Source: a virus. From it: a stretch of 64,000 nucleotides of DNA. Of the stretch, positions 15,075-62,260 are shown in pieces; positions within the stretch are counted from its first letter, which is position 1; the number at the start of each line of letters is the position of its first letter. The stretch is from IMG/VR virus record IMGVR_UViG_3300037089_000506, one strand, 5' to 3'. A model generated the notes under the pieces. It saw only the letters and a list, made by a program, of their open reading frames with translations. It was not told the origin of the DNA and made no database searches. The translations under genes and the position numbers were made by a program.

Positions 15075-16405
15075 TGCCTGATGAATATAGTGGTAGTACA
15101 GGGGCTATACAGTCTCAAATTCCTTGGATAGCACAATTATTATTATCCTCTGGCGACCTCACTACTTTAAGCAATATAGATACTGCTACAAATAAATTGA
15201 TACTACAAGTAAGTGCCTATAACACCTATTTAATGGCAGAATGGGGGTTTACAGCTTCTTCTGACTTGTTAGATATTGTATCTCAAAATAATATTACTAT
15301 TGGTAGTCCTATTAAATTTACCTTTTTCCCTGCCATGTCAAATGACTCCGTTGAACTAACCCTATGTGTATTATCAATACAATCGGGAGCAGGATTATCT
15401 GCTACTACATTAGGTAATCAGTTTAGTCTTACCTTAATCTCTCCTTGGTATTTTCAACAATATTTAGATTCCCATACTTATTATGGTAACATACCTTCCA
15501 TTGTTTCACAGATATTTACAAATGATAATTTATATGGTAGTAGTGCTCTATCAGATTTAAGAATAGGAGGAACGAACATCAGTGCTCTAGGAAATAGAGT
15601 ATCCTCTTCTTCAGCAGACCCCCCTGCTAATCGTTACCGTACTATGATGAAACAAGGAGATTTTATAGATATTCGATTGCGAAAATACTATAGAGGTATT
15701 GGTAATAGTTCTTCTTTTATGTTTACTAATATAGATAATGTCTTTGATATATGCTGTTTTAGCGATATGGCCGGGCTTGATACTTATATAGCTATTGATT
15801 ATTCTGATCCCCAATTTTCAGCATATGCAGACTGGATGGCGGACCCAAATTTAATAAAATTAATGATATTTCCTAATAGTAATATATTAAAAATAAATAA
15901 AGGGAATAAACAAAACCTATGGGATGTTTTATCTCCAGCTTTAGCTTATTTCGGTAGGCAAAAAACATATATAAAATCTTATTATGATACGCCTATGCTA
16001 CCTATATTAGGATATGATAAGGCTAATAGCTTCAGCTATGTAAATAAAAATAAAGGTATGGGTGCTATAACTAAACTATACATTGATGATACTATGCATG
16101 ATTTTGATGATATACAGTCTATGAAGTTCAATGAGTATAATAAAGACCTTCGAGATGCCCATAAATTTACTTTAATTTGTATGCCAAATTTATTTGTTAA
16201 AGCAGGGCGATTGTGTAATCTGAATTTATTAACAAAAGATCAAACTAGCTCTTCCCTGTTTACCCAAAAAGACTATATTATTTCAGAAGTAACTCATGTA
16301 TTTCAAGGTATTGTATGTAGAACAGAGCTTACCCTAGAAACTTCATGTTTAAGTTATACTGACCCTGACACTGTATCCCTACTATTTACTGCTCCTACGG
16401 ACTAG
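15074..16405 (+). CDS. Baseplate hub protein (gp27/late-control-D-like)
   Basis: 443 aa; C-terminal GRLCNL...DYIISEVTHVFQGIVCRTELTL typical of hub proteins; synteny. Confidence 0.6.
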   Translation: MPDEYSGSTGAIQSQIPWIAQLLLSSGDLTTLSNIDTATNKLILQVSAYNTYLMAEWGFTASSDLLDIVSQNNITIGSPIKFTFFPAMSNDSVELTLCVLSIQSGAGLSATTLGNQFSLTLISPWYFQQYLDSHTYYGNIPSIVSQIFTNDNLYGSSALSDLRIGGTNISALGNRVSSSSADPPANRYRTMMKQGDFIDIRLRKYYRGIGNSSSFMFTNIDNVFDICCFSDMAGLDTYIAIDYSDPQFSAYADWMADPNLIKLMIFPNSNILKINKGNKQNLWDVLSPALAYFGRQKTYIKSYYDTPMLPILGYDKANSFSYVNKNKGMGAITKLYIDDTMHDFDDIQSMKFNEYNKDLRDAHKFTLICMPNLFVKAGRLCNLNLLTKDQTSSSLFTQKDYIISEVTHVFQGIVCRTELTLETSCLSYTDPDTVSLLFTAPTD

Positions 16406-17489: not shown

Positions 17490-18240
17490 TGAAGATATTG
17501 TATCTAATTTAAGTTCATCTGCATATACATTGATAAATGATAGAATGTTACGAGGATTAGGAGGAAATGCCTATGAGGCTATTATTTTATCTAAATTTTT
17601 ATCATTCTATAAATATTTTTATGATTGTAAATTACTCACCTCTGATGGTTATTTTTTTCAAACAATAGACGACTTAGAAAAACTATGTGGTATTAGTGAA
17701 TATTACCAGCGCTCGGCAATAAAAGGGCTAGAAAGTAAACATTTACTTTCAGTACGAATATCAGGGTCTCCCCCTAAACGATATTTTAAAATTCATACTG
17801 AAAATATTCTCATTATAATGGAAACCCCTGTTCCTAAGAAATATATAGTGTCTAGGGAAGAGAAGAAAATTCAGCAAGATAAGTTTTACAAGGAATTGAA
17901 TTCAGCTCTAATATTCTCCTGGAAACTAACTCAAGAACGTGGTGGTAATATCCCAAAGCAATTATTATGGTTTATGTATGTATGGCAGGACTATATGAAA
18001 GCTAAAGGGGGCTTTGAATGGAATACAGCCCTTTATGGGGAATTACGTAATTATTGGAGAGTAAAGTATAATAAAAAATTATTTAATTATACTATATTAC
18101 ATGACTTTATGTATCTTGATCAGCCTAAAACTATATATAATTTTATTACCTATGATAGAAAGACACCAGAACTAGCATTTTTAGATAGACTCATTTATAA
18201 TGAGTTTGATATAGAAGGAGAGAAGTATGAGGAGAAATAA
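17482..18240 (+). CDS. Winged-helix replication initiator/organizer-like protein
   Basis: YFFQTIDDLEKLCGISEYYQRSAIKGLESKHLLSVRISGSPPKRYFKI wHTH pattern. Confidence 0.6.
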   Translation: MTNEDIVSNLSSSAYTLINDRMLRGLGGNAYEAIILSKFLSFYKYFYDCKLLTSDGYFFQTIDDLEKLCGISEYYQRSAIKGLESKHLLSVRISGSPPKRYFKIHTENILIIMETPVPKKYIVSREEKKIQQDKFYKELNSALIFSWKLTQERGGNIPKQLLWFMYVWQDYMKAKGGFEWNTALYGELRNYWRVKYNKKLFNYTILHDFMYLDQPKTIYNFITYDRKTPELAFLDRLIYNEFDIEGEKYEEK

Positions 18241-52997: not shown

Positions 52998-53677
52998 ATG
53001 AGGTTGAGAGCATAAGCCTAACTTCATAAAGTCTTTGACATACTAGGGATGGGGAATAAGGATGCAGGAAAAGTCCAGATACGTAGTGTTTGGAACCTAG
53101 CTGTAAGGTATGCACCAGTCTTCGACAATGATACAGCCATCCTTTTTATAGTGGGATTGCAGCCACCCCCAGTGATACTATCCGATACAGTAGGGTAGTG
53201 GAGGGGAAATAGCACGTTGAGCCTACGAGTAACGTAAAAGAAAGGCATTGAATGTGATTAGTCCTAACGAGGTTACGTAGATTCTATAGCAGAGAAGTGG
53301 GAAACCCATGGAGTTATAGAGGAGTTCCAGTTAGGACGGTCAGTGTGAATTAAAGTTCACACTCCGCTAAACCCAGAGGGGTGTCTGTCGGGCAATACAG
53401 TTAAAACCTCGTGGTGGGTAGCTTTCGGGCTGGTAAATCATAAGCCCACCAAATTAGGTGTAATGAATACCTGTAAATCTTATGACTGGTGATTCAAGTC
53501 ATAAGGGAAAATTCATATGTTCTTCTGAGGCATCATACTCCATAGATACTTCCAGTCCTATCGTGTATGTAGATGCCAACATGAAGTAATCCCTTAGGGT
53601 GGAGCTTAGGCTTTAGGTCAAAAGGGGGAATAGCCATGCTTGTCAGGTGAATACCCAAACCCTAGTATTTCTATTTT
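52998..53677 (+). ncRNA. GOLLD-like large structured RNA
   Basis: ~680 nt without a sense ORF. Closing stem TACTAGGG (53041-53048) / CCCTAGTA (53660-53667). Motif series GATGGGGAATA, CCTAGCT, TGCACC, TAGGGTAGTGGAGGG, AAAGAAAGGCATTGAA, ACGAGGTT, AAAACCTCGTGGTG, TGGTAAAT, GGGTGGAGC, ATAGCCATG matches my recollection of GOLLD; next to tRNAs. Confidence 0.75.
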
Positions 53678-53753
53678 AGAGGGATAGCTTAAGGTTAGAG
53701 CAGGAAATCTATTAAGGTTTCTGTGTTGAAGGTATCGAATCCTTCTCCCTCTG
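53678..53753 (+). tRNA. Atypical tRNA-like gene (probably Asn-derived; 10-nt anticodon loop, 8-nt T loop)
   Basis: Acceptor AGAGGGA/TCCCTCT, D stem GCTT/GAGC, stem GGAAA/TTTCT around TCTATTAAGG, T arm GAAGG-TATCGAAT-CCTTC, discriminator G. Confidence 0.55.
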
Positions 53754-53785
53754 TACTTTCTGAACCATCAACACACTAATTGTAT

Positions 53786-54505
53786 ATGAAACAGAAATAC
53801 TACCTTTATCAAATAAAATGTCTAATAAATGGGAAAATTTATGTGGGGGTGCATAGAACCTATAATCTTGATGATGACTATATGGGTTCAGGTACAAAAC
53901 TTTTAGGAGACATGACAGTTTTAGGAAAAAAGAATTTTGAGAGAACCATTCTAAAGTTCTTTGATTCTGAGGAAGAGATGTATAAAGAAGAAGCCCTTAT
54001 TGTAAATAAGGTGTTCATACAGAAAGAAGAAACCTATAATATTGTACCGGGAGGAAGAGGCGGTTCAACTCAGCTTACAGAATTGTCGAGAACAGACCAA
54101 GCCCGAAGTAAGAAAAGGGAAACATTAAGAAGAAGAAAGCATCAGCAAGGTACTAAAAATAGTAGGTATGGAACAATGTGGATTACTAATGGAATAGAAA
54201 ACAAATCAGTTAGTAGAATTAATGATATTCCTGAAGGCTGGAAAAAGGGAAGAGCTATATCCTATAATAGAGAATACAGAAGAGGGGAAGCAGCAGTAAA
54301 TTATGGAACAATGTGGGTTAACAATGGTAAGGAATCTAAACAAATAGAAAGTAATAAACCCATACCTGAAGGGTGGAAAAGAGGATTACTAATATCTTTA
54401 GAAAAACTTAATTCACAAAAAATGTGGATTACAAATGGTATTGAAAGTAAATTTGTATATAAAGAATCTCTAATACCTAATAATTGGAGGAGGGGAAGAA
54501 AATAA
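53786..54505 (+). CDS. GIY-YIG homing endonuclease (SegB-like location in tRNA cluster)
   Basis: YYLYQIKCLINGKIYVGVH, YMGSG, EE motif; three MW(I/V)(T/N)NG...IPxxW(K/R)xG repeats; ACTAATTG 3 nt before ATG. Confidence 0.88.
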   Translation: MKQKYYLYQIKCLINGKIYVGVHRTYNLDDDYMGSGTKLLGDMTVLGKKNFERTILKFFDSEEEMYKEEALIVNKVFIQKEETYNIVPGGRGGSTQLTELSRTDQARSKKRETLRRRKHQQGTKNSRYGTMWITNGIENKSVSRINDIPEGWKKGRAISYNREYRRGEAAVNYGTMWVNNGKESKQIESNKPIPEGWKRGLLISLEKLNSQKMWITNGIESKFVYKESLIPNNWRRGRK

Positions 54506-54508
54506 CGT

Positions 54509-54580
54509 TGCAGGATAAACCAATGGTTGGTTGCTACCCTCATAAGGTCGATGGTGTGGGTTCGAGTCCCACTCCTGCTA
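54509..54580 (+). tRNA. tRNA-Met/Ile2 (CAT)
   Basis: TGCAGGA/TCCTGCT, D AACC/GGTT, loop CTCATAA, T arm GTGGG-TTCGAGT-CCCAC. Confidence 0.8.
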
Positions 54581-55135
54581 ATAGGTTGATAGTAAAGCCT
54601 TAAAAACTATCATGTGGCTATAACAATTAAGTGAACTTAACAAAAGTCAAGGAGGATAAGACGATGCCGCCGGGTAAGTAAGAACCCTACTCCAACTATC
54701 ATTATAGTGGGTAGGTTATTGTTAAAACTTGTTTGAGTGTGTTGATGTTTAGATAGATAGGGTAATGTCAATAGGAAGAGTATACACTTCAAGCACCATT
54801 ACCTTTTATAATTATGGAGGGTACCAAAATGACTTATTACCTCCTGTAATGGGAGGATGTAAAAGTATGAACGTTCAGGCCAGGAGATTGATGCGAAAGC
54901 CACCCTGGCCTTTTATTTTATGATGGTTCGTTTTATGTTTTATTCGCCCTATGTGCTAAAACCTGAAGGAATACCTTCAGTACCTACCTATCGAGGTTCA
55001 TAGCAGCCCTAAATTAGGGTAACGGGATAGGATAGGGTACATGCCATCAGGAGGGAGGGTCTCCCATCAATTCTTATAAAGTTGTGATTCTTCGCTCATA
55101 CCGAAGTGATGGTAGTTTTATTATAAGGAGTGAAT

Positions 55136-55603
55136 ATGGGTATTATACCAGAAGGTCAATCAGAACCAATGTCGGAAGACATGGCAAAATCTCTTTTAGG
55201 AATTACGATGCTAGAAATGCAGGATAAGAATTTCAAAACTGCTACAGAGATTCTATCAGACATGACAGAACGAGCAGAGAATTCTGAGGATATGCAAGCT
55301 TTATTTCCTTTTCAGGTGATACAAAATAGAATTGAAATTTTTGGTTATGATATGAAATTTACTATTCCTGCTTTTCTCTCTTTTGGGGTATTTCCTGATA
55401 GAGTAGGAGCAGTGGTAGTTATGCTTATTGATATTCTAGAAACCCTTGGTGAAGGGAATATAACCTTAAATGATATAGCAGAGAAGTTATATCCCTATGG
55501 CTTCTATAATGAAGCAGGGTTAGAAAAGAGAATAGATGAAATTAAAATTGACAAAAAACTTCCTGCTGAAGAGATGAAATCCAAGTATAATAACTTGTAT
55601 TGA
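55136..55603 (+). CDS. Hypothetical protein
   Basis: AAGGAG RBS. Confidence 0.7.
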   Translation: MGIIPEGQSEPMSEDMAKSLLGITMLEMQDKNFKTATEILSDMTERAENSEDMQALFPFQVIQNRIEIFGYDMKFTIPAFLSFGVFPDRVGAVVVMLIDILETLGEGNITLNDIAEKLYPYGFYNEAGLEKRIDEIKIDKKLPAEEMKSKYNNLY

Positions 55604-55709
55604 TGGGTAAATAAAAAGCAAAGAAAAAAGTTAGGATATCTATAGTAATTCTTGACATTCTTTAGATTATATTGTATCTTATTCAAATCTTAATTCTAAG
55701 GAGCCTAAA

Positions 55710-56069
55710 ATGGCGCTTGTGTATAGGGTTGAAAATAAAGCACATATTGGGCCATATCGGAATGAGTATTACCCTAGTATTATGAAATATGTTTCTAAGC
55801 GTCATACTGACAATAACCATCCTTGTCCAATAGAAGATGAAGATATAAATCGACGAATGGATGAAGAAGAGAGATGTGGATTCAAAGATTTGAATCAATT
55901 TCGTTCTTGGTTCAATTTGAGGGATAGAAAACTTCTTCATACTATGGGGTTTATTCTTACTATTTATGAGGCTAAAGATATTGTTTATGGTAGATATCAA
56001 ATTTTATTTAATAAAAATACTGCATATAAGATAATGGAATATTCACTTTTAACCAGAAAAAGAACTTGA
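55710..56069 (+). CDS. Conserved phage hypothetical protein
   Basis: AAGGAG RBS; VYRVEN...GPY...HPCP...CGFKDLNQFRSWF; promoter TTGACA 55652 / TATCTT 55675. Confidence 0.75.
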   Translation: MALVYRVENKAHIGPYRNEYYPSIMKYVSKRHTDNNHPCPIEDEDINRRMDEEERCGFKDLNQFRSWFNLRDRKLLHTMGFILTIYEAKDIVYGRYQILFNKNTAYKIMEYSLLTRKRT

Positions 56070-56102
56070 CTATTTGACAGGAACATGTTATGTTCCTATT
56101 AT
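56066..56102 (+). promoter_or_regulatory. Two staggered sigma70 promoters overlapped by an inverted repeat
   Basis: TTGACT 56066 / TATGTT 56089 and TTGACA 56074 / TATTAT 56097 (17 nt each); AGGAACA-N5-TGTTCCT across the spacers. Confidence 0.7.
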
Positions 56103-56123
56103 CACTTGTTGAAGGAGACATGA

Positions 56124-56324
56124 ATGGCGAATGAGGTTAAGAATCGCTCGTGCCGAGTGAAGGGAGTAGGAAAGAATTCCGGCAGGTCCATCTCGGCGGA
56201 AAATCCTTCGGGGCTTCGTAGGAAGTCTGGTGGGCTAGAGCTTGCTCCTAAGTCTTTGCGGAGATTAGGCAGAAAGTTCATGACGGACTGTAATCAGGAG
56301 GAATTGGCAAAGATTGGATTGTAA
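56124..56324 (+). CDS. Small basic protein (66 aa)
   Basis: GAAGGAG RBS, downstream of the tandem promoters; Arg/Lys/Gly/Ser-rich. Confidence 0.65.
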   Translation: MANEVKNRSCRVKGVGKNSGRSISAENPSGLRRKSGGLELAPKSLRRLGRKFMTDCNQEELAKIGL

Positions 56325-56506
56325 ATCTATTAGGCAGTGGGCTTGGAAGTGGCCAGCTTTAATAAGTGGGACAGTAGGCTCTGGTTAGCATCCTGTAACG
56401 GGAAAGGGACCAGATGACTGGATATGGGCGCAACCAGCATCGAGTCGGGGAACGACAACGACTGGGCGCAACTTCCCTTTGGTGTAGTAACATACCTAAT
56501 AGATTT
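56323..56506 (+). ncRNA. 23S rRNA GTPase-associated-centre (H42-H44) mimic with ~110-nt insertion
   Basis: 12-bp closing stem AAATCTATTAGG/CCTAATAGATTT; GGCTTGGAAGTGGCCAGCTTTAA parallels GGCUUAGAAGCAGCCAUCAUUUAA; GGTGTAGTAACATA parallels AGCGUAAUAGCUCA. Confidence 0.7.
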
Positions 56507-56590
56507 TTATTTTTGAGGTCTTCGTAGCTAGTTCTGGACAAGCTAGTGAGGTTCCCTCAGTCCAACAAAGAACCACATAATGTCCTTCAG

Positions 56591-56704
56591 GCCATCGTGG
56601 TGGAAATGGAAATACACTGGGGACTTAACGAGGGTTTTCCTCTAGAGAATCTTGGTTAATCCCCCGCCTTTAATGGATTGAGGGTTCGACTCCCTCTGAT
56701 GGCA
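56591..56704 (+). tRNA. tRNA-Leu(TAA) with 29-nt insert after position 36
   Basis: GCCATCG/TGATGGC, GGGGA-CT-TAA-[56629-56657]-AA-TCCCC, long variable arm, GAGGG-TTCGACT-CCCTC. Confidence 0.85.
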
Positions 56705-56758
56705 GACAAATAAGACTGAGAGGAAATTATAAGAGATGTTTGGAACTAAAATCAATTT

Positions 56759-56831
56759 GGCTTCCTAGCCCAAAGGCAGAGGCAATAGTTTCAAAAACTA
56801 TAAAGTTTGAGTTCGAGTCTCAGGGAAGCTA
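56759..56831 (+). tRNA. tRNA-Leu(CAA), short variable arm
   Basis: GGCTTCC/GGAAGCT, ATAGT-TTCAAAA-ACTAT, TTGAG-TTCGAGT-CTCAG. Confidence 0.85.
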
Positions 56832-57209
56832 ATAGTGGCAAGAGCAATACCTGAAGCTCGTTATAAACCACAATATTATATATAAACAGAGGGTTAGAGG
56901 TAGCGAGAGTAGCTTGGTAGCTGCCTTGAAAAAGTATAAAATAGAGCTTGTTCATCAAAATTCTTAGTCTGCTATAAACAGGAGAGCAGTTGAAAAGTAG
57001 ACGATGATGGATACATCAAAGCCATCTGAGGGTTAGAGTGTTAGCCCAAAAGCCTAGCAATAGGATACAATAGTATAACCTCCATCGTGATACGTGGGAC
57101 TGCCTAGATGCTCGCTAGGAGGAAGGAACTATAAAATCGGGGAGTATCACGTAACTACCTTGAATGACAGCAACAGAGGTAGAAGGTGTACGAGAACCAC
57201 CTTATTTTT

Positions 57210-57280
57210 GGTTCCTTAGAATAGAGGAAGTTCGTAAGATTCTCAATCTTAAAGCAGCAGTTCAATTCTGCTAGGAACTA
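57210..57280 (+). tRNA. tRNA-Glu(CTC)
   Basis: GGTTCCT/AGGAACT, TAAGA-TTCTCAA-TCTTA, AGCAG-TTCAATT-CTGCT. Confidence 0.8.
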
Positions 57281-57285
57281 TTCAA

Positions 57286-57358
57286 GGTCCCGTAGGCGAG
57301 CGGCTAAGCCATCAGCCTTTCACGCTGAGGATCGTCGGTTCAAATCCGTCCGGGACTA
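57286..57358 (+). tRNA. tRNA-Glu(TTC)
   Basis: GGTCCCG/CGGGACT, TCAGC-CTTTCAC-GCTGA, GTCGG-TTCAAAT-CCGTC. Confidence 0.92.
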
Positions 57359-57488
57359 GTAAATCCTATCCTATGGTGTAGCTACTCAGGATAGGTTGAG
57401 ATAAACCTAACAGACGGTGCATGGGAGTATCAATATTAAGGGTTGTCATAATTAGAAATGAAGTGAGCACCTACTGAAGATGACCCTA

Positions 57489-57517
57489 TTGACTTTTTAG
57501 GAAAAGAGCAGTATAGT
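57489..57517 (+). promoter_or_regulatory. Sigma70 promoter
   Basis: TTGACT 57489-57494, 17 nt, TATAGT 57512-57517. Confidence 0.85.
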
Positions 57518-57523
57518 ATTAGT

Positions 57524-57771
57524 AAGAAGGGACCGGGAGTAGCAGAAAAGTAGTCGATGGTGTCCTGTAAAAAAGATGAGGTGCAAGGGCAAAACCTGCC
57601 ATGGGTAGCGCTAGACTAATCAGGATAGCTTCCTGATGAATGCCCAATAGTTCTTATAAACCAGGAATTAGACGAAAAAGTATGCTAGATGAGGGCAGAG
57701 ACAAACAAGTAATGGTGGTTTGTTTCATAGTGGTGAAAAACCTTAGCGGGTTTTAATCCCCTTCTTTTTTT
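57524..57771 (+). ncRNA. Unassigned ~245-nt structured RNA
   Basis: Begins 6 nt after the -10 box; ends pair AAGAAGGG (57524-57531) / CCCTTCTT (57759-57766), then a T run; internal hairpins; no ORF. Confidence 0.6.
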
Positions 57772-57844
57772 AGGGACGTAGTTTAGTGGAGAACTACAAA
57801 GGCTAAACCCGGAGTAGGTGTTGGAACAAAACCAACCGTTCCTG
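57772..57844 (+). tRNA. Degenerate tRNA-like element
   Basis: Acceptor AGGGACG/CGTTCCT and D arm GTTT-AGTGGA-GAAC intact; T loop replaced by AACAAAA; anticodon arm irregular. Confidence 0.5.
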
Positions 57845-57891
57845 TAAGGAATCCATGTTATCAAAGCATGGAGGATAGTAGGAGTAGAGAA

Positions 57892-58644
57892 ATGGGGAAT
57901 ATGTTACATCAGTTATTGGCCGTGGAGCAAGATTTAGTACAGCAGTCAAGGAACATTTTGGATGTGGAGTGCAAAAACACCTTCACTAAAAAGCAGGATT
58001 TGTTCGATGGTGTACTGAAGAATTACATTTCTTTCGATGCTGCTGGGGAACAAATTCCTCCAGAGAGTAAAGAAATTGTAACCACAGTAGCAGAGAAGAT
58101 AGAGTATGCTCAGGGTGCGGTTATCAAGGCCATTGATGCCAGTATCAGCAAGGAAGAGACGAATGCTTCTGGTACTGCTAAAGCCCCTCTCATGCTTGAT
58201 GATGGTACTGACTTTGGTACCCTTTCTGCTACTTCTCTGATTGCGTTAGAGAAGTATCTTGTCAGGATTAGAGAAGTCTACAAGGACATTCCAACGGTAG
58301 ACCCTGCTCGTTCATGGACTAAGGATTCTACACAGGCTAGAGCTATCTATGTGGCTCCTGTAGATACTAAGTTCCGTTCTATCAAAAAGCTTGAGGTTAT
58401 CACCAAAGTAGCTGCAACGGATAAGTTCCCTGCACAGACTGAGATGGTACAGAACGAGGTCCAGGTAGGTAAGTACGAAACTACCTATACGTCAGGTAGG
58501 CTACAGCCTATAGAGAAGTCAAACCTTTTGTCAAAGATTGACACTCTGATTCAAGCTGTAAAACAGGCTCGTCAAGCTGCTAATCAGGCACAGGTAATAA
58601 ACGTCAAGTTAGGTGATAAAATATTCGCCTATATCAACAGTTAA
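57892..58644 (+). CDS. Conserved coiled-coil/beta-hairpin protein (LHQLLAVE family) followed by a structured RNA
   Basis: AGGAG RBS before ATG 57892; LHQLLAVE, PPESKEIVTTV, LIALEKYL, IPTVDPA, VGKYETTYTSG; higher GC than its flanks. Confidence 0.8.
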   Translation: MGNMLHQLLAVEQDLVQQSRNILDVECKNTFTKKQDLFDGVLKNYISFDAAGEQIPPESKEIVTTVAEKIEYAQGAVIKAIDASISKEETNASGTAKAPLMLDDGTDFGTLSATSLIALEKYLVRIREVYKDIPTVDPARSWTKDSTQARAIYVAPVDTKFRSIKKLEVITKVAATDKFPAQTEMVQNEVQVGKYETTYTSGRLQPIEKSNLLSKIDTLIQAVKQARQAANQAQVINVKLGDKIFAYINS

Positions 58645-58866
58645 ATAAATTGGAGTTACTTCCACCATGGCAGTATTTGTGCTAATCCATGAGGATATTT
58701 CGCAATAGCATAAGTATTGCTCTGGGGGGTAACTCCTTAAGAGCTAGTAGTAGTATCAGTAAATGGGCATACCCGTTAGGGCCGCCCAAGTAGAGTCTAC
58801 GTAATTCCATCAGTTTATTGCTTGGCAGTTTTCTTAAAGTCTATATCGTGACAGAGGCATTGGCGA

Positions 58867-58991
58867 CAATGATATAATTTAACGTAGGCATTGGTTCGAA
58901 TCCAATCTTTCCCACTGTAAGCTTTATTAAAGAGCTTATTGTGGGAGAGGAGAGTCGGTGGCAGACTCGGCGTTTTTAGTAAAAATCATTG
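58867..58991 (+). ncRNA. Circularly permuted tRNA fold (YrlA/Y-RNA-like)
   Basis: AACGT, AGGC, T arm ATTGG-TTCGAAT-CCAAT, acceptor-like CTTTCCC/GGGAGAG closed by a hairpin, D arm GAGTC-GGTGGCA-GACTC, then GCGTT pairing back to AACGT; outer CAATGAT/ATCATTG. Confidence 0.7.
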
Positions 58992-59051
58992 GGTGACTTC
59001 GGCCCGAAAGGATACTAGCAGCACTTACAATAGTCTTGAAAACTATTAATC

Positions 59052-59088
59052 GGGCCGGGGGAAGGTAAGACCCCCGGTCCTTCTTTTT
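59052..59088 (+). terminator. Rho-independent terminator
   Basis: GGGCCGGGGG / CCCCCGGTCC stem followed by TTCTTTTT. Confidence 0.85.
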
Positions 59089-59114
59089 ATTAGACTAATT
59101 ATATGAGGTGTAAT

Positions 59115-59636
59115 ATGGACTATTTTACATTAAATAACGTGAAAGTATTTATGACATCAGCTCCGAATAATCTAGATATGGCAGAAATGCTAGGAATGGA
59201 AATGGAAGAAAATGAGATTAAATTAGCAATAGTATTATTAGGGGAAGAAGAATTAAAAAGATTATATGGAGATACTGTTTCTTTATTCAAAGTTTATTCT
59301 TCCTATGGAACCAAAGTATTATCCTATCCCATACCAGACTTTGAGGTTCCTGCTGATATAAGTAAATTTAATCAAGCTGTAGAAACAGTATGTGGTTATA
59401 TAAAAAATAATAATGTGCTAGTACATTGCTGGGGTGGGCATGGTAGAACAGGAATTATGACAGTAGGAATTTGTGTGAGAACGGGGATGTCAGTAGAGAA
59501 TGCGTATGAAATGATATCTAAAAAAAGAAAAATATTAGAAACAAATGAACAATTTGAATTTTTATATGACTATGAAGAGTTTTGTATTAAATTAAGGAGT
59601 GAATATGATATTAGAGGAACAGCTACAAGTACTTAA
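59115..59636 (+). CDS. Dual-specificity/PTP-family phosphatase (CX5R)
   Basis: YPIPDFEVP, VLVHCWGGHGRTG, ETNEQ; ACTAATTA at 59094-59101. Confidence 0.9.
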   Translation: MDYFTLNNVKVFMTSAPNNLDMAEMLGMEMEENEIKLAIVLLGEEELKRLYGDTVSLFKVYSSYGTKVLSYPIPDFEVPADISKFNQAVETVCGYIKNNNVLVHCWGGHGRTGIMTVGICVRTGMSVENAYEMISKKRKILETNEQFEFLYDYEEFCIKLRSEYDIRGTATST

Positions 59637-60246
59637 TAATTATATTGTCCAATTTATTCAGTATATGAAGGACAATAATAGATTTATTGTCTATGACTTG
59701 GAAACCAATGGATTTGTAGCTAACCCAATGCCTTCAGTATTATCAATATCAGCAGAATTATGTAAATTAAACTCCAATAAGACTATATCGGTTATTGATA
59801 CTTATAATAGATTCTATTATTGTAAAGAGGAATATAACCCTAAAGCTACAAAAGTAAATGGACTCATTGATGATGAAATAAATAAAAGACGGATTGAAAT
59901 TTGTGGTAGTTTTGATGATTACACTGATTATTTTTTAGATGACATTGCTTCTTTTAAAACCTTTTGTGGTAATACCTCTGTATTCCTTGGATTTAATAAT
60001 ACTGGATTTGATAATATATTTCTTGAGGACTATATGATATTTCCTCACTCTCTGGATATAATGGTAGTTCAGGCTGCTCTAGAAAATGGTAAGTATAGGA
60101 AGCTGAAAGAAGTAGCCCCTGACTATGATGTTATTACTGATGAAGCAGAATTACATCAATCTTCTTATGATGTATACTTGACTAAAAGTATTTTTAGTAG
60201 TATGCTTAGTATGTCAACAGTGAGGATGATTGAACTAAAGGAGTAG
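59599..60246 (+). CDS. DEDDh 3'-5' exonuclease (DnaQ-like)
   Basis: VYDLETNG, GFNNTGFD, HQSSYDV. Confidence 0.88.
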   Translation: MNMILEEQLQVLNNYIVQFIQYMKDNNRFIVYDLETNGFVANPMPSVLSISAELCKLNSNKTISVIDTYNRFYYCKEEYNPKATKVNGLIDDEINKRRIEICGSFDDYTDYFLDDIASFKTFCGNTSVFLGFNNTGFDNIFLEDYMIFPHSLDIMVVQAALENGKYRKLKEVAPDYDVITDEAELHQSSYDVYLTKSIFSSMLSMSTVRMIELKE

Positions 60247-60248
60247 AA

Positions 60249-60437
60249 ATGGAAAAGCCTAAAGTAGTATTGACTGGTGCTGATGGCAATGTATTCAATC
60301 TACTGAGCATCTGTACTAAAGCCCTGAAAGAGGCAGGGCAGAGGGATAAGGCTAAGGAGCTGGGGGAGAAGTTGTGGGAGGCGAGTTCGTATGAACACGC
60401 TCTATGTTTAATGGCAGAATTTTGTGAGGTAGAATAA
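60249..60437 (+). CDS. Small hypothetical protein
   Basis: AAGGAG RBS; LTGADGNVFNLL. Confidence 0.7.
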   Translation: MEKPKVVLTGADGNVFNLLSICTKALKEAGQRDKAKELGEKLWEASSYEHALCLMAEFCEVE

Positions 60438-60710
60438 ATGGATGCGAATGATCTGATGGAAAAGTTCACTGTTAAGTATCAAGTTATTGTTTTAATTATA
60501 CTGGGCATTCTAGGTTCTATTGCTCTAGGCACGTTTGCTCTTTCAATGGAAGGGCTGTTTCAGATTGTATTTGCAATAGGAGCAGGATTAGTATGCTGGT
60601 ATATATCAAGGTCAGAGTTTGAGATTTATTCTCGTCCTGTTCTGACTTCATATTATTCATTGGGTGTACTACTAATGATGCTATCTTTTGCAGCAGTATT
60701 TCTTCAATGA
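60438..60710 (+). CDS. Small membrane protein (three TM)
   Basis: Three hydrophobic helices; GAGGT RBS. Confidence 0.7.
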   Translation: MDANDLMEKFTVKYQVIVLIILGILGSIALGTFALSMEGLFQIVFAIGAGLVCWYISRSEFEIYSRPVLTSYYSLGVLLMMLSFAAVFLQ

Positions 60711-60720
60711 AATTATTCAA

Positions 60721-60796
60721 GCGAGTGTATCTCCTCACTCTGATAAGGTGTTGAAAGGGTAGTAGGTGCAGGGAGGTTCGAGTCCTCCAACTCGCA
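60721..60796 (+). tRNA. tRNA-Ile(GAT)-like RNA lacking a canonical D arm
   Basis: GCGAGT/ACTCGC acceptor, CACT-CTGATAA-GGTG anticodon arm, GGAGG-TTCGAGT-CCTCC T arm; D arm absent, 21-nt segment after the anticodon arm. Confidence 0.6.
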
Positions 60797-60816
60797 CATT
60801 GGGAATTAGATAATAT

Positions 60817-60888
60817 GCGGTATTAGCTCAGGGGTAGAGTCCTAGTTTTCCAAACTCGGGGTCGTCGGTTCGAATCCGATATGCCGCT
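60817..60888 (+). tRNA. tRNA-Gly(TCC)
   Basis: GCGGTAT/ATGCCGC, loop TTTCCAA, GTCGG-TTCGAAT-CCGAT. Confidence 0.9.
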
Positions 60889-60899
60889 TTATAAAGGAG

Positions 60900-61250
60900 A
60901 TGAATATGAATATGTTTGAATTTTTTGAAATGAAGGTTAACTATGAGGAGCGCAAAGTAGATAACACTATTATTCCAAGTGTTGATGCTGTTATTGATAC
61001 ATGCGCCGTTAATGATTCTACTCAGCCTTATGAAACTGCTATTAAATGCAGTCATTACAATAATGGGGAATGGGTAGTAGTGGAGCAGTATGATAGTAAA
61101 GAAGAGGCTCAAAAGGGGCATGAGAGATGGGTACAAGTATTCAAGTCGTCACTCCCTACAAAGCTTATAGATGTTTCTGAGTGTCACATAGCTTCAGAGC
61201 TTACTGCTTTAGAGGGGAAAAGAGAGTATCTTTTAAATACATCAAATTAA
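60900..61250 (+). CDS. Hypothetical protein
   Basis: AAGGAG RBS; YETAI...VVVEQYDSKEEAQKGHERWV. Confidence 0.75.
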   Translation: MNMNMFEFFEMKVNYEERKVDNTIIPSVDAVIDTCAVNDSTQPYETAIKCSHYNNGEWVVVEQYDSKEEAQKGHERWVQVFKSSLPTKLIDVSECHIASELTALEGKREYLLNTSN

Positions 61251-61257
61251 TTTTAAT

Positions 61258-61330
61258 CTACGGTTAGCTCAGTTGGTAGAGCCCTTGGCCGAAGACCAAG
61301 TTGTCCTCCGTTCGACTCGGAGACCGTGGA
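61258..61330 (+). tRNA. tRNA-Phe(GAA)
   Basis: CTACGGT/ACCGTGG, CTTGG-CCGAAGA-CCAAG, CTCCG-TTCGACT-CGGAG. Confidence 0.88.
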
Positions 61331-61332
61331 CT

Positions 61333-61405
61333 GTGACTGAGGCAGATTTGGTGTTGCGCCACCCTGTGAAGGTAGAGATAGAGGGTTCGACTCCCTCCAG
61401 CCACC
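61333..61405 (+). tRNA. tRNA-His(GTG)
   Basis: GTGACTG/CAGCCAC, loop CTGTGAA, GAGGG-TTCGACT-CCCTC, discriminator C. Confidence 0.85.
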
Positions 61406-61418
61406 CTATAAAAAATAA

Positions 61419-61500
61419 GGGTCCGTGGTGGAACTGGCATACACGTTGGTCTTAGGAACCAATGCCGAAAGGATTGAGGGTTCAACTCCCTTTGGACCCA
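61419..61500 (+). tRNA. tRNA-Leu(TAG)
   Basis: GGGTCCG/TGGACCC, TTGGT-CTTAGGA-ACCAA, long variable arm. Confidence 0.92.
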
Positions 61501-61504
61501 TCGT

Positions 61505-61578
61505 GCCTTTGTAGCTCATATGGACAGAGCACTTCTCCACGAAAGAGGATGTAACAGGTTCGAACCCTGCCAAAGGTA
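61505..61578 (+). tRNA. tRNA-Arg(ACG)
   Basis: GCCTTTG/CAAAGGT, CTTCT-CCACGAA-AGAGG, T loop TTCGAAC. Confidence 0.88.
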
Positions 61579-61580
61579 AT

Positions 61581-61682
61581 GGTTCTGTAGCTCAAATGGA
61601 CAGAGCAACTGCCCTCTTTTTTACTTTAGCAGTAGAGTAATAAAGAAGCAGTAGGTAGCCCGTTCGAACCGGGCCAGGATCA
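61581..61682 (+). tRNA. tRNA-Arg(TCT) with 28-nt insert after position 36
   Basis: GGTTCTG/CAGGATC, ACTGC-CC-TCT-[61618-61645]-AA-GCAGT, GCCCG-TTCGAAC-CGGGC. Confidence 0.85.
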
Positions 61683-61684
61683 AA

Positions 61685-61784
61685 GGGACTAAGGCCGATT
61701 GGTTTAGGCACCGGCCTTTTTGAATACTTTTTAATAGAGTATTGAAAAAGCCGGTTGTGGTAGGTTCGATTCCTATTAGTCCCA
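61685..61784 (+). tRNA. tRNA-Lys(TTT) with 27-nt insert after position 36
   Basis: GGGACTA/TAGTCCC, CCGGC-CT-TTT-[61721-61747]-AA-GCCGG, GTAGG-TTCGATT-CCTAT. Identity assumes the same insertion site as the other two. Confidence 0.8.
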
Positions 61785-61806
61785 TAACTAATTATATGAG
61801 GATAGT

Positions 61807-62184
61807 ATGGCAGCAAAAAAAAAGAAAGTAATTGAAGTATGGGAAATTATTGTTATTAGTGTAGGCTTAGCTATAGGCTTATATGTGTTTGCTATAAAGC
61901 CCTATGTTGTTCCTTGGGTACAAGAAAAATTAAATATAGGCTTAGTGGCAGCAGTTCCTGCTAAAACAGAAATGATGTTACAATCATTAAAGTCAAGAGA
62001 ATCAGCACCAGTATCAGCAGAGCGACAAGCCATTGAGGCTCTTAGGCTGAAGCACCTGAAGGTAAAGAATTTATTAGATGATGCTAATCAGATTTTTGGT
62101 ATTGTTGCTTCATTGGTAGGTATTATTATAGGATTAAAAACCTTACTAAGAAATGTAAAGGCTAAGAAGGTAGCAGTAAAGTAA
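61807..62184 (+). CDS. Membrane protein (two TM)
   Basis: ACTAATTA 61787-61794, GAGGA RBS, two hydrophobic helices. Confidence 0.7.
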   Translation: MAAKKKKVIEVWEIIVISVGLAIGLYVFAIKPYVVPWVQEKLNIGLVAAVPAKTEMMLQSLKSRESAPVSAERQAIEALRLKHLKVKNLLDDANQIFGIVASLVGIIIGLKTLLRNVKAKKVAVK

Positions 62185-62189
62185 CACAA

Positions 62190-62260
62190 GGGGCTATAGC
62201 TCAGTTGTAGAGCGGTAGATCTGCATTCTACAGGTCGAGATGTCAAAGTCTCTAGCTCCA
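62190..62260 (+). tRNA. tRNA-Ala(TGC) with atypical T loop
   Basis: GGGGCTA/TAGCTCC (G3:U70), GTAGA-TCTGCAT-TCTAC, GAGAT-GTCAAA-GTCTC. Confidence 0.75.

Follow-up and report, generated by a model that had tools for sequence, protein, structure and literature searches.

How are tRNA genes whose anticodon loops are interrupted by short hairpins turned into tRNAs that can decode? This question is raised by three genes, for leucine (UAA), arginine (UCU) and lysine (UUU) tRNAs, in the virus record IMGVR_UViG_3300037089_000506. The stretch analyzed, referred to here as the window, is 64,000 nucleotides (nt) long. It is part of a large tailed phage, is AT-rich (34.6% GC) and contains a long tRNA cluster. 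The phage was sampled further by overlapping contigs, whose overlaps are at least 99.7% identical, to about 146 kb of a genome of at least 196.6 kb. Contigs outside the window carry L-numbers and other phage records carry G-numbers. To our knowledge, bacterial and phage tRNA introns are either self-splicing or unexplained. Our analysis suggests that the hairpins are likely excised by host RNase III and that the exons are joined again by an ATP-dependent RNA ligase.

The coordinates that a first-pass annotation gave for the three genes, and the lengths of 29, 28 and 27 nt that it gave for their inserts, are correct. When the inserts are removed exactly, tRNAs of 85, 74 and 73 nt remain, which ARAGORN calls Leu(taa), Arg(tct) and Lys(ttt), the identities first assigned. 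With the inserts in place the genes are missed or miscalled by standard tools, and tRNA-Arg(UCU) escapes both default ARAGORN and Rfam at the gathering score. Four to five other assemblies contain identical copies of all three genes, so the inserts are not an assembly artefact. The same phage contains a fourth insert just outside the window, in tRNA-Asn(GUU). There the GUU anticodon is restored only by excision at 35/36, and what this removes is, as in the other three genes, a hairpin that ends in a 2-nt 3' overhang. In the sampled 146 kb, every Lys, Arg, Leu(UAA) and Asn(GUU) gene found is interrupted.

The hairpins have z-scores of -2.3 (Leu), -3.7 (Arg) and -4.1 (Lys) against dinucleotide shuffles. 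In the precursor, the 5' exon ends in two bases that pair with the final two of the insert. This creates a helix of about 20 bp with the anticodon arm, in which the anticodon is buried. U34 pairs with A37, the one mismatch is G·G at pair 5 in Leu and Lys and U·U at pair 6 in Arg, and exact excision leaves a 2-nt 3' overhang, all as first described. The loop size of 5-6 nt does not hold for Arg, which folds with 4 nt. The inserts had also been judged too short for group I or group II introns and devoid of a bulge-helix-bulge motif, and this is borne out. Rfam finds no group I, group II or other intron family at the inserts, whose 27-29 nt compare with a catalytic core of more than 140 nt. Their helix is continuous with a 1x1 mismatch, and they are located at 36/37 or 35/36, not at 37/38.

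Pattern scans and scans of whole clusters identified 34 inserts of 26-36 nt, 25 of them 27-29 nt long. The bodies that carry them are Arg, Lys, Leu, Asn, Ile, Thr, Pro, Ala, Val, Trp, CAU, GCU and UCA tRNAs. Matches in giant viruses were rejected as members of this class; they look like ordinary eukaryotic introns and do not have the 2-nt-overhang register. Insert positions are numbered from the 5' cut, with +1 as the first insert base. The inserts share a core of C:G at +7, W:W at +8, U·G at +9 and U:A at +10, with an exception in Leu, which has U:A at +7. In the phage, U·G at +9 is flanked by U-A pairs at +8 and +10 in all four inserts, and C-G precedes them at +7 in three. This position-fixed core indicates that the inserts are one family, although they had been described as unrelated.

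Twenty-four of the 34 inserts came from a pattern that forces part of the core, and ten were found without the motif. Core statistics were therefore run on these ten unbiased inserts, which are not fully independent, as four are from the studied phage. The U·G pair at +9 is present in all ten and U-A at +10 in nine. The C:G/W:W/U·G core is found in eight, where pair shuffles predict 0.05. Of the first ten bases of the inserts, 90% are paired when a 2-nt overhang is assumed and 35-61% in other registers. The pairing register is kept over all 34 inserts (93% versus at most 59%). At positions that the pattern did not force, A-U or U-A is found at +3 in 31/34 and at +1 in 28/34, compared to 40/102 at +4 to +6. 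The register follows whichever cut gives back an anticodon that suits the tRNA body, including cuts at 35/36 (Asn twice, Thr once). Site 36/37 and U34, common to the three window genes, are thus not rules. GUU, GGU, CAU and CCA anticodons and 35/36 sites exist, and the family includes G34 and C34.

Several members of the family are found in cultured phages. Arg inserts of 26-28 nt are present in the Aeromonas phages PX29, AsFcp_2, Aeh1, Ah1, avDM12, AsFcp_4 and phiWae14, and they show compensatory changes around the fixed C-G/W-W/U·G/U-A core. In phage phiAS5, the orthologue of the PX29 and Aeh1 tRNA-Arg lacks the insert exactly at 36/37 and is uninterrupted. The interrupted tRNA feature is real and under selection.

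Features of the interrupted tRNA genes and of candidate joining enzymes in the phage
Feature	Position	Strand	Remarks
tRNA cluster, part in the window	53677..62260	+	holds the 3 interrupted genes; runs on past the window
tRNA-Leu(UAA), interrupted	56591..56704	+	only UAA copy in the ~146 kb sampled
Leu insert, 29 nt at 36/37	56629..56657	+	11-pair stem, G·G at +2, 5-nt loop, 2-nt 3' overhang; distal box U·G/U-A, 56637-56638 paired with 56647-56646
tRNA-Arg(UCU), interrupted	61581..61682	+	A20 and C35 present, atypical C33
Arg insert, 28 nt at 36/37	61618..61645	+	11-pair stem, U·U at +3, 4-nt loop, 2-nt 3' overhang
tRNA-Lys(UUU), interrupted	61685..61784	+	only Lys tRNA in the ~146 kb sampled
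Lys insert, 27 nt at 36/37	61721..61747	+	10-pair stem, G·G at +2, 5-nt loop, 2-nt 3' overhang
tRNA-Asn(GUU) insert, 28 nt at 35/36	L001:14937-14964		same phage, just outside the window
Rnl5/DRB0094-like RNA ligase, 424 amino acids	L226:10932-12206		same phage, past the window; downstream of the Lys gene by ~26 kb, linked to it by contiguous overlapping DNA
RtcB	L258:3294-4433		same phage, past the window

The core and register of the inserts closely resemble a minimal RNase III substrate. The 34-nt µR1.1, derived from the T7 site R1.1, is the minimal substrate of the E. coli enzyme (Pertzev and Nicholson 2006, PMC1540722). Its 11-bp helix between the cut and the tetraloop, together with a 2-nt overhang, gives a 28-nt product. 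The distal box is UA/UG, with a 'stringent requirement' for the UG pair, whose inversion causes a 50-fold loss. The proximal box has AU/UA at positions 2 and 4, AU at 3 and GC at 1 (PMC1540722). In our own numbering, the distal box corresponds to +10/+9 and proximal positions 2 and 4 correspond to +3/+1. The distal box, located beside the loop, is present in all four inserts of the phage, and the AU/UA preference at +3 and +1 falls on the two proximal positions; at +2, G·G is frequent, and +4 varies. Both boxes lie as far from the cuts as the spacing that defines cleavage in µR1.1. The helix between cut and loop spans 11 pair positions in Leu, Arg and Asn and 10 in Lys, with one mismatch each. 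The upper five pairs of the Asn insert in phage G005 are the same as in R1.1. Unlike the phage inserts, R1.1 is an mRNA processing site and is not rejoined. The inserts are located in the anticodon loop, and both predicted cuts are exon boundaries.

The T7 genome was scanned with the insert motif. The top two hairpins by energy were the R1.1 hairpin, with a GCAA loop, and a hairpin before gene 1. The predicted cuts are after 3138 and 5887, the latter with the GCAA loop of R1.1, and we take both to be mapped RNase III cuts. The scan gave 5 matches, compared to 3.0 in shuffles, and its strict form recovers only Arg among the window inserts. Because the match count is not enriched, only the energy ranking is informative.

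The first-pass annotation had proposed an RNase III-like nuclease of the phage and a ligase. The match to the boxes, size and overhang of the µR1.1 product lends considerable support to the RNase III part of this proposal. A phage-encoded enzyme was not found: no RNase III signature or Pfam match is present in the sampled 146 kb, and none in ten other phage records. The host enzyme is therefore the likely cutter. On the strength of these motifs and the pairing register, RNase III very probably cuts at the exon boundaries.

These observations suggest a mechanism in which the inserts would be mini-introns built as RNase III sites. Host RNase III would cut behind position 36 and ahead of 37, or behind 35 and ahead of 36 in Asn and Thr. 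This would free a hairpin of 27-29 nt whose 3' end overhangs by 2 nt, and leave exon ends with 3'-OH and 5'-P. An ATP-dependent RNA ligase would then rejoin the exons into a 7-nt loop without end-healing, a step that is less firmly indicated than the cutting. AAA, AGA, UUA and AAU are the commonest codons for their amino acids in the phage, the first three in agreement with the annotation, which had called them frequent. Maturation of the tRNAs reading AAA, AGA, UUA and AAY would then hang on a ligase found only in infected cells.

The best candidate for this ligase would be the phage's own Rnl5/DRB0094-like protein. The protein has a weak PF21189 module (N-terminal OB) and an intact motif I (KxHG). 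It is 28-30% identical over its full length to annotated phage RNA ligases, and 35% identical (E 2e-73) to a ligase in the tRNA cluster of the insert-bearing phage G005. PF09414 is present in each of the five other phage records that have in-register inserts (G005, G006, G007, G009 and G011), and the three complete genomes among them also contain Rnl1 and lack RtcB. A 591-amino-acid metallophosphoesterase was considered as a Pnkp ligase and rejected. The exons are probably rejoined to functional tRNA; the assignment of this role to the Rnl5/DRB0094-like protein is tentative.

Several observations weigh against this mechanism. The Lys stem has only 10 pairs, and the mismatch is located inside the proximal box in three of the four inserts of the phage. 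Most of the Asn helix below the cut lacks pairing. A substrate already cut on one arm is cleaved by RNase III on the second about as fast (PMC1540722), so sequential double cutting is plausible where the lower helix is weak, as in Asn. An older, weak RNase III consensus (Krinke-Wulff; PMC4357697) agrees with the inserts in its AGWG and CWxU boxes; a +2 shift fits it about equally (10.2 versus 10.4 of 16), and it does not fix the register. Two Asn-bodied genes, L142:77-145 and L147:432-500, both on the minus strand, contain 32-nt hairpin inserts whose exact removal needs cuts at 34/35, with a 5' overhang. In the RNase III register they would give GAU or GAC anticodons, and their geometry does not fit. 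These two inserts may be another class.

The remaining points concern ligation. The candidate matches TIGR02306 with E 6e-9 and 35 bits, below the cut-off of 151. Rnl5 ligases (DraRnl) seal 3'-OH/5'-P nicks in duplexes, not in open anticodon loops (PMC1807946, PMC5397189). The fit is thus chemical, not geometric, as RNase III ends match but the known substrates are duplex nicks. PF09414 is also present in G001 and G002, where no such inserts were found, so its co-occurrence with the inserts is not specific. Rnl1 was not seen in the sampled 146 kb, and the phage encodes RtcB. Because PF09414 is not specific and RtcB is at hand, we infer both the ligation and the identity of the ligase.

In one alternative, RNase III cuts and the halves are never rejoined, which would give nicked or degraded tRNA, or a decoy or regulatory RNA. 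No ligase is needed in this case, and RNase III acts in this way on intervening sequences of 23S rRNA. The preference of the candidate ligase for duplex nicks and its nonspecific co-occurrence also favor it. However, the cuts are placed where rejoining gives a 7-nt loop and an anticodon that fits the body, and they move to 35/36 when needed. In addition, the tRNA bodies retain identity elements and are the only copies found, and phiAS5 carries the exact uninterrupted form. We consider cutting without rejoining unlikely.

RtcB raises a second possibility, in which a dedicated metal-independent nuclease, phage-encoded or of the HEPN type, leaves 2',3'-cyclic-P and 5'-OH ends that RtcB joins. Both the studied phage and G009 encode RtcB, a large share of the phage proteome is without annotation, and interrupted tRNA-like genes are located directly behind HEPN-like genes in bacterial contigs. 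However, conservation falls on the RNase III boxes and on the 3' overhang of 2 nt. RtcB is missing from the three complete phage genomes with inserts, and no HEPN gene adjoins the phage tRNAs. This route is less probable still.

It is very improbable that small inverted duplications or hairpin insertions have turned the genes into pseudogenes that are not processed at all. The presence of the insert is polymorphic among sister phages, as phiAS5 indicates, other degenerate tRNA-like pieces are found in the cluster, and the Arg gene has C33. Nevertheless, the register is fixed and a non-Watson-Crick pair is invariant over 34 inserts in more than ten tRNA types. This U·G pair is not expected from an inverted duplication, no target-site duplications are seen, and the compensatory changes in orthologues largely refute decay. 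Introns of the archaeal or eukaryal type, removed by the splicing endonuclease EndA/TSEN, are of similar size and do occur in giant-virus contigs, but they can be set aside almost entirely, given the insertion sites, the missing bulge-helix-bulge, the different register in giant viruses and carriers that include Aeromonas phages.

The reading in which RNase III excises the inserts and a ligase rejoins the exons can be compared with known systems. Archaeal and eukaryal introns (EndA/TSEN with RtcB or Trl1) are likewise short, removed by proteins, located in the anticodon loop and paired with the anticodon. Apart from motif and site, they differ in their cyclic-P and 5'-OH ends, whereas 5'-P and 3'-OH are predicted here, and the phage inserts occur in bacteriophages and bacterial contigs. 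Group I introns also interrupt bacterial tRNA anticodon loops, but they are self-splicing and hundreds of bases long. Intervening sequences in 23S and 16S rRNA are stem-loops removed by host RNase III. They are patchy among relatives, as are the inserts, and the rRNA stays fragmented. Most are much longer than the inserts, and a tRNA broken in its anticodon loop needs ligation to decode. T4 Pnkp-Rnl1, which acts against PrrC damage, and Rnl5 are ATP-dependent ligases for 3'-OH/5'-P ends, T4 Rnl1 being a phage enzyme like the DRB0094-like candidate here. They repair damage or duplex nicks, whereas the break proposed here would be programmed and would need no end-healing. Lak megaphages contain 'enigmatic' tRNA introns of about 79-114 nt that are tRNA-like (Devoto et al. 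2019, PMC6784885, Table S6). Those also lie in phage tRNA anticodon loops, without an Rfam family or a known mechanism; the inserts described here are single hairpins of 25-36 nt. A literature search, which left subscription journals mostly uncovered, found no description of such inserts or of a cut-and-rejoin tRNA route in bacteria or phages.

Why the inserts are kept is a separate matter. The insert is dispensable, since phiAS5 is without it. Candidate reasons may be ligase-gated timing, the breaking of target sites for homing endonucleases or integrases, transient masking from nucleases, or tolerance of an insert that would remove itself at small cost. Masking from PrrC- or PARIS-type nucleases, the purpose first suggested, would have a weak point in that the mature tRNA would have an ordinary, cleavable loop. 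With regard to DNA target sites, several GIY-YIG/HNH genes adjoin tRNA genes in the cluster.

The GIY-YIG or HNH-type genes are located directly before tRNA-Met, tRNA-Pro and tRNA-Gln (window 53677-54581, L001:11195-11782 and L001:14950-15856), partly behind a degenerate tRNA copy such as the 'Asn att' call at 53677. This placement suggests homing into tRNA genes. A GIY-YIG/NUMOD3 insertion is optional and differs between strains (L256 versus L257, ~15194-15780).

Interrupted tRNA-like genes of the same kind are found in bacterial contigs. The HEPN-like open reading frames (ORFs) before them are 250-280 amino acids long, with an invariant R-N-x-x-x-H (PF18735 E 2e-4 for L157; no PADLOC match). 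Within about 0-12 nt of the stop follows a tRNA-like gene with a hairpin insert and a UCA, CCA or UGG anticodon (8 pairs checked). Such pairs are located on Clostridia-type contigs (L156:772-1647, L159, L160, L161, L165, L173, L176, L185, L214 and L216) and also on L211, from a Verrucomicrobia metagenome-assembled genome, L186 and L157. Several of the tRNA-like bodies seem to be 6/6, not 7/5. The ORF and the interrupted tRNA are possibly an undescribed nuclease-plus-tRNA defence or toxin-antitoxin module.

Additional features are found in the phage and its closest relative, G001 (67% capsid identity). A DUF7873 search found no viral relatives. In G001, two tRNA genes (75155-75271 and 81773-81888; L052, L053) contain longer inserts of about 45 nt of a different type, and the tRNA cluster contains repeated short elements with GACAC...GTGTC-type ends. 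The tRNA-like RNA at window 60721-60797 has a GAU anticodon arm and a long variable region but lacks a normal D-arm; a near-identical copy is present in G001 (L052, near 18020-18095). A tRNA with a CUA (amber) anticodon is found at L070:10444-10515, and TAG is the stop in 13/46 phage genes. RNA-repair and translation genes encode RtcB, an R2K ATP-grasp protein, PTH2, NADAR, a dual-specificity phosphatase and a DEDD exonuclease (sites besides that of RtcB: L259:13088-13741, L001:19817-20870 and window 59103-60246). A metallophosphoesterase at L070:13549-15324 contains an apparent intein that starts with Cys, ends in Asn-Cys and has an endonuclease-like middle. ORF-poor, GC-richer stretches without an Rfam match are located at window 53040-53660, 54590-55120, 56100-56590, 56840-57200, 57360-57860 and 58640-59100. 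More non-coding RNAs are likely there, among them a Ser-like arm near 58990-59085.

The insert class explains why some tRNAs have been overlooked or miscalled in annotation. The interrupted tRNA-Arg is annotated as tRNA-Lys in PX29 (L141 / GU396103.1 101115-101315) and as tRNA-Glu in Aeh1 (AY266303.2 114904-115008). The cultured Aeromonas phages are a ready experimental system, with phiAS5 as a natural intron-less control. As far as the genomes indicate, it is reasonably likely that tRNAs of phages, and of some bacterial islands, are spliced by proteins along a pathway new to Bacteria. In it, the housekeeping nuclease RNase III would act as splicing endonuclease on introns of ~28 nt that are minimal RNase III sites, and an ATP-dependent ligase would close the anticodon loop, so that the ligase gates the tRNA supply. 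If the reading is true, it would be a third enzymatic route to tRNA splicing, in which RNase III products are rejoined on purpose, for which we found no earlier description, and orphan phage RNA ligases (Rnl2/Rnl5) would gain a physiological substrate.

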